Below, piece after piece: positions 2,922-5,200 of a stretch of DNA of 5,200 nucleotides. The notes under the pieces are model-generated. The model was not told the DNA's origin, ran no database searches, and was given only the letters and a program-made list of their open reading frames with translations. The stretch lies in IMG/VR virus record IMGVR_UViG_2693429524_000010. One strand, given 5' to 3'. The stretch is from a virus. Its lineage: Duplodnaviria > Heunggongvirae > Uroviricota > Caudoviricetes. The first letter of the stretch is position 1. Every line of letters begins with the position of its first letter. The position numbers were made by a program, and so were the translations under genes.

Positions 2922-2948
2922 GTTGGTTCAGTTGGTTCAGTTGGTTCA
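2922..2948 (+). repeat. Three perfect tandem copies of the 9-mer GTTGGTTCA
   Basis: Read directly: GTTGGTTCA at 2922-2930, 2931-2939 and 2940-2948, head to tail with no spacer. Confidence 0.95.
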
Positions 2949-2991
2949 ATTTGTAAAGAGCGTTGTTTTTATTGTGTTTTTTCTAAAATAT

Positions 2992-3021
2992 TGAACCAAC
3001 ATCAACTCATTTTGAACCAAC
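2992..3021 (-). repeat. Two further copies of the same 9-mer in inverted orientation (TGAACCAAC), 12 bp apart
   Basis: TGAACCAAC at 2992-3000 and 3013-3021 is the reverse complement of GTTGGTTCA, giving five copies of the 9-mer within 100 bp. Confidence 0.9.
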
Positions 3022-3372: not shown

Positions 3373-4458
3373 ATGATTCTCAAAAGCCACCTGTATTCAA
3401 TGCCTTTGATGGGTTTCATCCATAGTTATTTTCTCGTGACTGACATGGAGATTTTGATTTCAAGGTGTGCAAAAACTATCGCAGAGTACAATGGAGCTCA
3501 AATGACTGTGGCACCAAAAGATCAAAGTTTGAAATCTGTAAGGGTGGGCTTTTACACAAGCTCTGAGAATATTCGCACTAGTAACAAGGGGTTAACCGCA
3601 GAGGCCTTTAAAAATCTGTATGATCGGTGTTCTAAAGACTTCAAGATGACCCACTATGCAGACTTTGGTGAAAGAGAACTTAAAATTCATTTTCTAGACA
3701 TCTCACCCGAGGATGGCTCCTACTTCGGATTCATGTCTCGAAGAAGAAAAAGCGCAACACTGGCATATATTACAGATAAAGAGTGGGTGGAAGAGAAAAT
3801 CCCTCTAGCCGGGGCAAAGACTCTTTCAGAACGTACATACTTTATTTATTATCCTCAGACAGACATTCTAGTATTGTCTTTAAATCATTTAGGTCCACGC
3901 CATAGTGACTTAGCCTTCCTTCTTTTCAACTCCAGTGATCGCGGAGTCCCTGTTTCTTTTGAAGCCATTTGGAAAGAAGAAAGCATCAAAGAACTACTCG
4001 AAACTGGATCCAATCTAAGAAGCTGCGAGATTTCTGTGGCCATCCCAAGAAACTTCAATGCCGCACAGTATCAACTCGATGGAATGTTCGCGAATCAGAT
4101 GATTGAGATGATCAGAGGCACCAGTTCAAGCCACCTGACTATTTCGTTACGCGGACATTCTCCATTAAAAAGAAAAGCAAAGGGATGGCTTGAGGATGAC
4201 GTTAAAAAAAGCCTTAAGGAGATGCTAGAAAAGTTCCCTGGTGGTGATGGTCGTTTAACTTTTGAGAAAGCAAATGTTGTTGCTCAGGGCGATAAAAAGA
4301 AGAAAAGTCTTGTAGACGAAGTTCTTACGGTAAAGAAGATGGTGCCTATCCAAGCAGATGGGTATCCGACCGATACTGACGTTAAAAATGCTATGCTACA
4401 AGCAAAGAATGACAACCTTAGGTATCTAACCCAGTACTATTTGGTTAGTCAAACGTAA
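3373..4458 (+). CDS. Hypothetical soluble protein (361 aa as the longest ORF); candidate sensor component of a two-gene module
   Basis: Long uninterrupted ORF in about 40% GC DNA with no predicted membrane segments beyond the doubtful first 24 residues. Three possible starts: 3373 (AGG then TAGG upstream), 3445 (no clear RBS) or 3502 (GGAG 6 nt upstream, which I favour). Its stop is 12 nt before the next start. No family recognised from sequence. Confidence 0.7.
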   Translation: MILKSHLYSMPLMGFIHSYFLVTDMEILISRCAKTIAEYNGAQMTVAPKDQSLKSVRVGFYTSSENIRTSNKGLTAEAFKNLYDRCSKDFKMTHYADFGERELKIHFLDISPEDGSYFGFMSRRRKSATLAYITDKEWVEEKIPLAGAKTLSERTYFIYYPQTDILVLSLNHLGPRHSDLAFLLFNSSDRGVPVSFEAIWKEESIKELLETGSNLRSCEISVAIPRNFNAAQYQLDGMFANQMIEMIRGTSSSHLTISLRGHSPLKRKAKGWLEDDVKKSLKEMLEKFPGGDGRLTFEKANVVAQGDKKKKSLVDEVLTVKKMVPIQADGYPTDTDVKNAMLQAKNDNLRYLTQYYLVSQT

Positions 4459-4470
4459 CAGGAATACATT

Positions 4471-4908
4471 ATGAGTTCTCGGAAATTGTTTGCTGCCAAG
4501 TCATTGTTTGCTCTAGCTATGGCTATTGCTGGTGCCCATTTTTTACACGACCTAGATCACAATGCTGTCATTTCGGCTGCTGGTGCTCTTTCAACTATTT
4601 CTGGAGTTCTCTTTGGTTTTGTTTTGGCATCAGTCACCATGCTAAGTAGCTTTGATAGTTCAAAGGGAATTGTAGGCGCTCTAAAAAGTAACGGAGTACT
4701 AAAAGGCATTATTGAGGGGCTTTTTGATACAGGAACTACGCTGATCACAGCCTGCCTATTAGCAATGATCTCGATGTTTGCCCCTGTTGTCAGCAATCTG
4801 CCTCTGGATTATTATGCCCTGCTACTCGCAGGGGCATATTTGATTATATCAATGATAACTTTTTTCTTTAACTGGAAATCTTTATCTAAAATAATAAGTT
4901 ACATATGA
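4471..4908 (+). CDS. Small integral membrane protein (145 aa) with four predicted transmembrane helices; candidate effector
   Basis: Four hydrophobic stretches of about 20 residues each, at roughly residues 6-25, 36-60, 87-107 and 112-133, with an amphipathic loop between helices 2 and 3. AGGA lies 7 nt upstream of the ATG, and the gene starts 12 nt after the upstream stop, suggesting co-transcription. Confidence 0.75.
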   Translation: MSSRKLFAAKSLFALAMAIAGAHFLHDLDHNAVISAAGALSTISGVLFGFVLASVTMLSSFDSSKGIVGALKSNGVLKGIIEGLFDTGTTLITACLLAMISMFAPVVSNLPLDYYALLLAGAYLIISMITFFFNWKSLSKIISYI

Positions 4909-5028: not shown

Positions 5029-5048
5029 GAGGAATGGCTCCTCTTTTA
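5029..5048 (+). terminator. Weak candidate intrinsic terminator downstream of the cassette
   Basis: GAGGA (5029-5033), loop ATGGC, then TCCTC (5039-5043) followed by TTTTA. The stem is only 5 bp, so this is marginal. Confidence 0.2.
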
Positions 5049-5089
5049 CTACCAAACGGCCATCGCTGGCGCATTCATCCGCTGGTAGT

Positions 5090-5200
5090 TGAACCGCCCC
5101 GGGTTTCCTGGAGAGTGTTTTATCTGTGAACTCAGGCTGCCAGATCATCGTTTCCGATGGAAGCATAATAAGCTTTTTCTGCTTCTGCCGGAGGAGTATG
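5090..5200 (-). mobile_element. IS3-family insertion sequence (same type as at 1-126), orfB-proximal terminus (IRR); element continues rightward out of the window
   Basis: 5090-5134 reads TGAACCGCCCCGGGTTTCCTGGAGAGTGTTTTATCTGTGAACTCA. Its first 13 nt are identical to the inverted terminus at 114-126 and are followed by a similar TCCTGGAGA block, as expected for IRR versus IRL of one element. Confidence 0.75.
5132..5200 (-). CDS. IS3-family transposase OrfB, C-terminal 22 codons plus stop (partial, runs off the window)
   Basis: Reverse complement of 5135-5200 translates HTPPAEAEKAYYASIGNDDLAA, followed by a TGA stop at 5132-5134, just inside the terminal repeat. That placement is typical of IS3-family orfB; identity is inferred from position, not from a recognised motif. 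Confidence 0.55.
   Translation of the reverse strand, partial: HTPPAEAEKAYYASIGNDDLAA

Follow-up and report, generated by a model that had tools for sequence, protein, structure and literature searches.

The window analysed here, a stretch of 5,200 nucleotides (nt) of tailed-phage DNA (Caudoviricetes; IMG/VR record IMGVR_UViG_2693429524_000010), carries two adjacent genes, designated A and B, which probably constitute a RexAB-type two-component phage-exclusion (abortive infection) module transported as cargo of a mobile element. A Rex-like sensor-plus-effector pair had been proposed at this position in a first-pass annotation of the sequence, and the proposal is supported by the homology of A to RexA, the architecture of B, the pairing of the two genes and loci in which the pair occupies the place of rex. 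The cassette has the following features, with lengths in amino acids (aa).

3373..3501, + strand: 43-codon in-frame upstream extension of the A open reading frame (ORF), probably untranslated
3493..3496, + strand: GGAG, Shine-Dalgarno sequence of gene A, 5 nt 5' of ATG 3502, as read from the sequence
3502..4458, + strand: gene A, 318 aa, WP_001528727.1, divergent DUF6731 member with RexA fold, cytoplasmic; proposed sensor/DNA-binding component
4460..4463, + strand: AGGA, Shine-Dalgarno sequence of gene B, inside the 12-nt A-B spacer and 7 nt before ATG 4471, as read from the sequence
4471..4908, + strand: gene B, 145 aa, WP_000098670.1, phrog_8552, four helices, inner membrane; proposed RexB-like effector
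5029..5053, + strand: candidate weak terminator-like hairpin with T-run, 120 nt 3' of B, from a consensus scan

The relation of A to RexA emerges from profile-profile comparison by HHalign, for which a RexA family alignment was built from 30 sequences. The broad profile of DUF6731 matches the RexA family with 90.8% probability (E 1.2e-6, 250 columns), A and RexA being aligned nearly end to end (A 14-315 against RexA 2-270), and reversed, column-shuffled and unrelated control profiles score at most 17.6, with E-values of at least 0.12, as compared with 50.3 for A-RexA. Within this alignment the invariant L-G-P-x-x-S-D-L motif of A stands in register with F/Y-G-P-T-T-x-D-L of RexA, while RexA residues R219/K221, without which DNA binding and exclusion are lost, are placed beside the K265-K268 run of A; RexA mutants deficient in DNA binding lose exclusion. 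Considering in addition the basic isoelectric point of both proteins (8.9 for A and 8.6 for RexA), A is a remote homologue of RexA and not a mere analogue. In agreement, A shows the two-domain fold of RexA, and the DNA-binding fold of RdgC, Iml3-Chl4 and CENP-N scores far below RexA for A; the latter are housekeeping recombination or kinetochore proteins which, unlike A, come without a membrane partner.

Judged by profile and transitivity rather than by direct score, A would belong to DUF6731 (PF20505). Of the representatives retrieved with its profile, 104 out of 118 are DUF6731 proteins, relatives with 43-45% identity pass the Pfam DUF6731 cut-off, and two proteins with an E-value of about 1e-70 to A (P0030 and P0035) pass the gathering score with 42-45 bits. 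A itself has no direct Pfam DUF6731 match because it sits on a divergent enterobacterial branch of the family. DUF6731 has no described function, and the literature search gave no paper on this domain. A sub-threshold Pfam match of A to TubZ-like_C (E 0.026) was dismissed as noise. Two very long proteins, P0112 (2101 aa) and P0174 (1823 aa), are hit 9 and 11 times by one 45-residue segment of the A profile (approximately 178-223); these multiple matches reflect either a repeat domain akin to a portion of the RexA-like fold or an artefact of composition.

As stated in the first-pass annotation, two ORFs (3373..4458 and 4471..4908) lie on the + strand with 12 nt from stop to start, and both are genuine genes under strong purifying selection and not chance ORFs because the ratio of nonsynonymous to synonymous substitution rates (dN/dS), measured against a 91%-identical Klebsiella-type copy, is low (0.054 for A and 0.065 for B) and the PHROG profile matches are strong (E 3.6e-139 for A and E 3.6e-54 for B with phrog_8552). 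For A, a length of either 361 or about 318 aa had been envisaged. The 361-aa form, counted in the ORF list from the first ATG, has to be abandoned as ATG 3373 is without a properly spaced Shine-Dalgarno sequence, and the start of gene A is almost certainly ATG 3502, where the spacing of the GGAG sequence, the RefSeq gene call of 318 aa and the starts of the homologues and of the PHROG match agree; the 43-codon extension is found neither in A homologues nor in the RefSeq call, and the PHROG match covers the 361-aa form only from residue 46 onward. The lower GC content that had been ascribed to the cassette was likewise recovered, with 41.5% for A, 40.0% for B and 39.0% for the upstream intergenic region versus 47-52% in the left half of the window. 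Terminator-like sites are no more numerous in the region than in shuffled sequence, and the Rfam search found nothing.

The 145-aa protein B indeed possesses the predicted four hydrophobic helices, as four hydrophobic segments (residues 6-24, 40-58, 89-107 and 115-133) coincide in number with four long helices in the AlphaFold2 (AF2) model (predicted local distance difference test score, pLDDT, 64). RexB of 144 aa has its hydrophobic segments at 8-26, 48-66, 84-102 and 116-134, and clusters of lysine and arginine are located in both proteins at the N-terminus, in the loop between helices 2 and 3 and at the C-terminus, the helix 2-3 loop being the most conserved part of B. From this charge distribution alone, B is predicted to span the membrane four times with both termini in the cytoplasm, as in RexB. 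With a profile of nine RexB sequences from genuine cI-rexA-rexB loci, the HHalign probability of B-RexB rises from 0.7% to 11.5% and to 50.4% (E 1.6e-4) as distant B partners are added; the alignment covers 62 columns, the same collinear region (B 16-81, RexB 20-85) is involved in each comparison, and controls of preserved composition show no such rise (E at least 0.11). Homology of B and RexB is thus likely but unproven. The suggestion of a divergent Rex-like pair holds by profile homology for A, while for B it is carried by the architecture.

B has no Pfam or NCBIfam match, and sub-threshold Pfam matches to DUF2649 (B) and to MotA_ExbB and Phage_holin_5_2 (B homologues) were dismissed as noise. 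Structural matches of B in BFVD are weak, the second-best viral one being a 165-aa Sbash protein not confirmed as gp31; the best viral structural matches of A and of B come from one and the same uncultured phage. In Klebsiella phage ST101-KPC2phi6.1 (L014 2856-3284), a genuine RexB has been labelled 'biopolymer transporter ExbB (RexB)' by the depositor, and the sub-threshold MotA_ExbB match of one B homologue has an E-value of 0.12; a distant link of RexB/B to MotA/ExbB-type proton channels may be worth testing.

Co-conservation of the two genes, by which the first-pass annotation had proposed to check its reading, was followed in 80 enterobacterial prophage loci plus distant loci, which were not de-replicated, so that the counts describe the sample and not frequencies. 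An ORF of 145-153 aa with four hydrophobic segments begins 2-28 nt after A in 77 of the 80 enterobacterial loci, and as A is disrupted in the remaining three, pairing is seen in 77/77 intact loci. Among the distant loci, often GC-rich and from hosts such as Halomonas, Sulfuritalea, Oxalobacter, Hydrogenophaga, Polynucleobacter, Magnetococcales and others, a four-helix partner follows A in 16 out of the 17 with downstream sequence recovered.

The position of the pair is that of mobile cargo, as had been surmised, since it rides prophages and, in the window, the thrW island with the end of an IS629 element adjoining. The antiterminator gene Q is located on the opposite strand just after B in 65/80 loci, and the pair thus fills the gap from Q to the holin/endolysin genes, in antisense orientation relative to the late operon; the named phage cdtI is an example of a copy in this gap, which is the slot of stx in Stx phages. 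In two loci (L006 and L030) a cI-type repressor gene (helix-turn-helix, HTH, plus Peptidase_S24) immediately precedes the pair on the same strand, as in lambda cI-rexA-rexB, and five loci share the PerC island context of the window. An integrase, an A-like gene (351 aa) and a B-like gene (150 aa) are found at the left end (L012 181-2896) of Vibrio phage 10N.286.54.F4_PE001, a 14.6-kb PM2-like (Vinavirales) temperate element belonging to a different viral realm; the cassette has therefore crossed between viral realms. An E. coli prophage with the DUF6731 pair beside the holin gene encodes in the same lysis-proximal region (L003 5792-6085) an Acb2/Tad1-hairpin protein, a member of an anti-CBASS/Thoeris sponge family, and defence and counter-defence cargo are thus side by side in this prophage.

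Of known systems, lambda RexAB (PF15969/PF15968; PDB 8TWQ) provides the closest layout, and the figures quoted for it at the outset, RexA with 279 aa and RexB with 144 aa and four hydrophobic segments, proved to be correct. As in the tight rexAB operon the soluble gene of A-B comes first, here with the 12-nt spacer, but identity is only about 15%, A is 39 residues longer than RexA, and lambda rexAB resides in the immunity region after cI while A-B is usually found in the Q-lysis gap or in an island. Only five Rex-like systems have been described (PMC12894663, 2026). In the RexABpp system of Pseudomonas putida defence requires both genes, and RexA is a DNA-binding protein whose overexpression leads to growth arrest and leakage that depend on RexB (PMC12894663). 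The genes of this system in P. putida prophage P1 (PP_5643/PP_5644) were recovered (L121:573-1565 and 1568-2134), and by profile comparison this validated Pseudomonas pair appears as a lineage separate from the A-B family. The actinophage pairs Sbash gp30/gp31, CarolAnn gp44/gp43 and Butters gp30/gp31 resemble A-B in consisting of a prophage-expressed cytoplasmic protein and a four-transmembrane protein, although they stem from another phylum and vary in gene order and orientation. In Sbash gp31, the central loop, which is cytoplasmic, is conserved and indispensable for defence (PMC6426596), and the corresponding loop shows the strongest conservation within B. Kiwa has a similar two-gene layout, with the four-transmembrane KwaA and the soluble DNA-binding KwaB (DUF4868, about 310 aa), but in the opposite gene order; identity of A-B with Kiwa was rejected as A and B have no PADLOC or Pfam match.

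Modelled on lambda RexAB, Sbash gp30/31 (and CarolAnn) and P. putida RexABpp, the following course of events can be proposed. A and B would be made constitutively as products of a single operon in a lysogen or in a cell bearing the island, with A as a cytoplasmic dimer that uses its RexA/RdgC-like DNA-binding fold as a clamp-like sensor. Upon encounter of the trigger provided by an incoming phage, a phage protein or a DNA-protein intermediate of replication or recombination, A would change its state and engage B at the conserved cytoplasmic loop that joins its helices 2 and 3. B would subsequently oligomerise into a leaky pore or channel in the inner membrane, and loss of membrane potential and ATP would stop growth and abort the infection. 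As a further and less probable assumption, the antisense placement between Q and the lysis genes may be functional as well: upon induction of the host prophage, late transcription antiterminated by Q would collide head-on with the cassette and thereby silence it. If true, such silencing would be a built-in way for the prophage not to abort its own lytic cycle.

Several observations weigh against this assignment of A-B to the RexAB type. The narrow A alignment on its own gives no RexA signal by HHalign and only the broad family profile shows the link; single-sequence and narrow-profile comparisons to RexA and RexB are equally not significant. The Pfam RexA model (PF15969) is matched neither by A nor by any of the 118 family members (lambda RexA control, E 1e-97), and the Pfam RexB model (PF15968) neither by B nor by 11 distant partners (lambda RexB control, E 8.5e-92). 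For B, the probability of the RexB alignment is only 50% and the confidence of the AF2 model low (pLDDT 64). RexApp and RexBpp score at most 16 (E at least 0.05) against all profiles by hhalign and hmmsearch, with limited sensitivity as the targets are single sequences. In PADLOC-DB v2.0.0, zero families are hit by A and B at E ≤ 1, and direct searches of both proteins against Pfam, NCBIfam, PADLOC and PDB sequences gave nothing significant, so that the check by sequence search foreseen in the first-pass annotation delivered neither RexA/RexB nor a defence match; the defence databases and literature searched do not name the A-B family. Promoter-like hits upstream of A are no commoner than in shuffled sequence, and none is convincing. 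Finally, the pair in the window is not beside a repressor but in the PerC island context.

Among alternative explanations, a reversed logic, with A as the toxic or antiviral effector acting on DNA and B as a membrane anchor which sequesters A until infection, is improbable. Butters gp30/gp31 works with such reversed roles of the two proteins, as summarised in PMC12894663, and the DNA-clamp RexA/RdgC fold of A together with the loss of exclusion in RexA DNA-binding mutants would be compatible with it, but in four of the five described Rex-like systems the membrane protein is the effector (PMC12894663). B is as constrained as A (dN/dS 0.065) with the cytoplasmic loop as the most conserved part; as constraint and loop conservation fit both models, they do not separate Rex from Butters logic here. 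It is similarly unlikely that the pair serves the life cycle of its own carrier, with A biasing the lysis-lysogeny switch and B modulating host physiology. RexA biases the lambda switch toward lysis independently of RexB (PMC11077077), and regulators adjoin the pair, namely cI in L006/L030, Q in 65/80 loci and PerC in the window. However, the pair turns up in unaltered form next to unrelated regulators, within a PM2-like virus and on a satellite-like island, and a switch-tuned regulator should not transfer so freely, while the strict co-inheritance of A and B argues for joint action.

Very unlikely is a lysis-timing accessory or addiction module in which A would regulate B, the latter acting as a membrane peptide that is toxic or of holin/antiholin type, so that the element is stabilised or lysis tuned. 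Most copies do reside beside holin/endolysin genes, and one B homologue shows a sub-threshold Pfam holin match (E 0.006, 17 bits with a cut-off of 29), but transcription of the pair opposes that of the late lysis operon, copies exist at a distance from any lysis genes (window, L006, L012), none of the holin models is passed by a member of the B family, and A has the RexA fold, with which we know of no holin regulator. It is the behaviour as a transferable cassette, together with the orientation, that makes all three of these explanations less likely than a RexAB-type exclusion module.

The window derives from E. coli, namely from the thrW (tRNA-Thr) island adjoining proA, and lies in the accessory end of an element that resembles a satellite or prophage. 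The genes of this thrW element encode an integrase, an AlpA-type HTH protein, antA/B, ash, a TOPRIM/DUF927 primase and P22-type ejection proteins. The combination of satellite-like genes and P22-type ejection/injection proteins without capsid/tail genes (L001 25238-37841; L002 20880-34255) is an unusual make-up for a satellite. Within the window, the neighbours of A-B are an integrase C-terminal ORF, a 119-aa hypothetical protein, a PRiA4_ORF3 protein, a 61-aa protein and the PerC regulator, with the following details for this part of the window and for its right end.

206-874, + strand: 222-aa ORF, tyrosine-recombinase catalytic domain only (Pfam Phage_integrase, E 1e-47)
2121-2306, - strand: 61-aa phrog_7271 gene, after the PRiA4_ORF3-family gene
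about 5088-5200, right end of the window: IS629 end, approximately 180 nt after the B stop

The 206-874 ORF is likely what is left of a second integrase located at the thrW island's far end; in related genomes, integrase pseudogenes or IS3 elements take its place. In the adjacent block of small genes (1106-2306), the gene for the 119-aa hypothetical protein (+ strand) overlaps the PRiA4_ORF3-family gene (1458-2000, - strand) convergently by 8 nt, and this conserved block travels with PerC and A-B in at least 31 E. coli genomes. In the PerC-A intergenic region, the 9-mer GTTGGTTCA occurs five times at 2922-3021, which is 37-136 nt upstream of where PerC starts: three direct copies in tandem (2922-2948, with 9-nt spacing) face two inverted ones, TGAACCAAC, at 2992-3000 and 3013-3021. 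The array looks like a candidate protein-binding site for a regulator, an iteron or a recombinase arm site. In genomes without IS629, a 390-nt hypothetical gene and P22-type DNA-ejection genes are found instead at the right end (L001 24830-28692). The A-B pair is rare in E. coli, being present in 42 of 5,426 complete genomes as a single-copy, chromosomal and at least 99% identical pair, with both genes annotated as "hypothetical protein".

RexAB was the first abortive-infection system to be described, about 70 years ago, and to our knowledge still awaits a settled mechanism. A Pfam domain of unknown function and an unnamed membrane partner are now seen to form a large Rex-related family, which comprises 136 clusters at 50% identity and has members in E. 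coli, Klebsiella, Yersinia, Salmonella, Aeromonas and Halomonas, among others. It is conceivable, although at present the less probable assumption, that DUF6731 and its four-helix partner constitute an ancient unrecognised sister branch of RexAB, distributed Proteobacteria-wide and exchanged among lambdoid tailed phages, PM2-like Vinavirales and satellites, with trigger specificities of its own. If the family is functional, current defence finders overlook a whole class of prophage immunity, and many natural variants of both partners would become available to study the dialogue between a RexA-type sensor and a RexB-type channel. With respect to applicability, the A-B family is a candidate factor behind failures of phage therapy against clinical Enterobacteriaceae.
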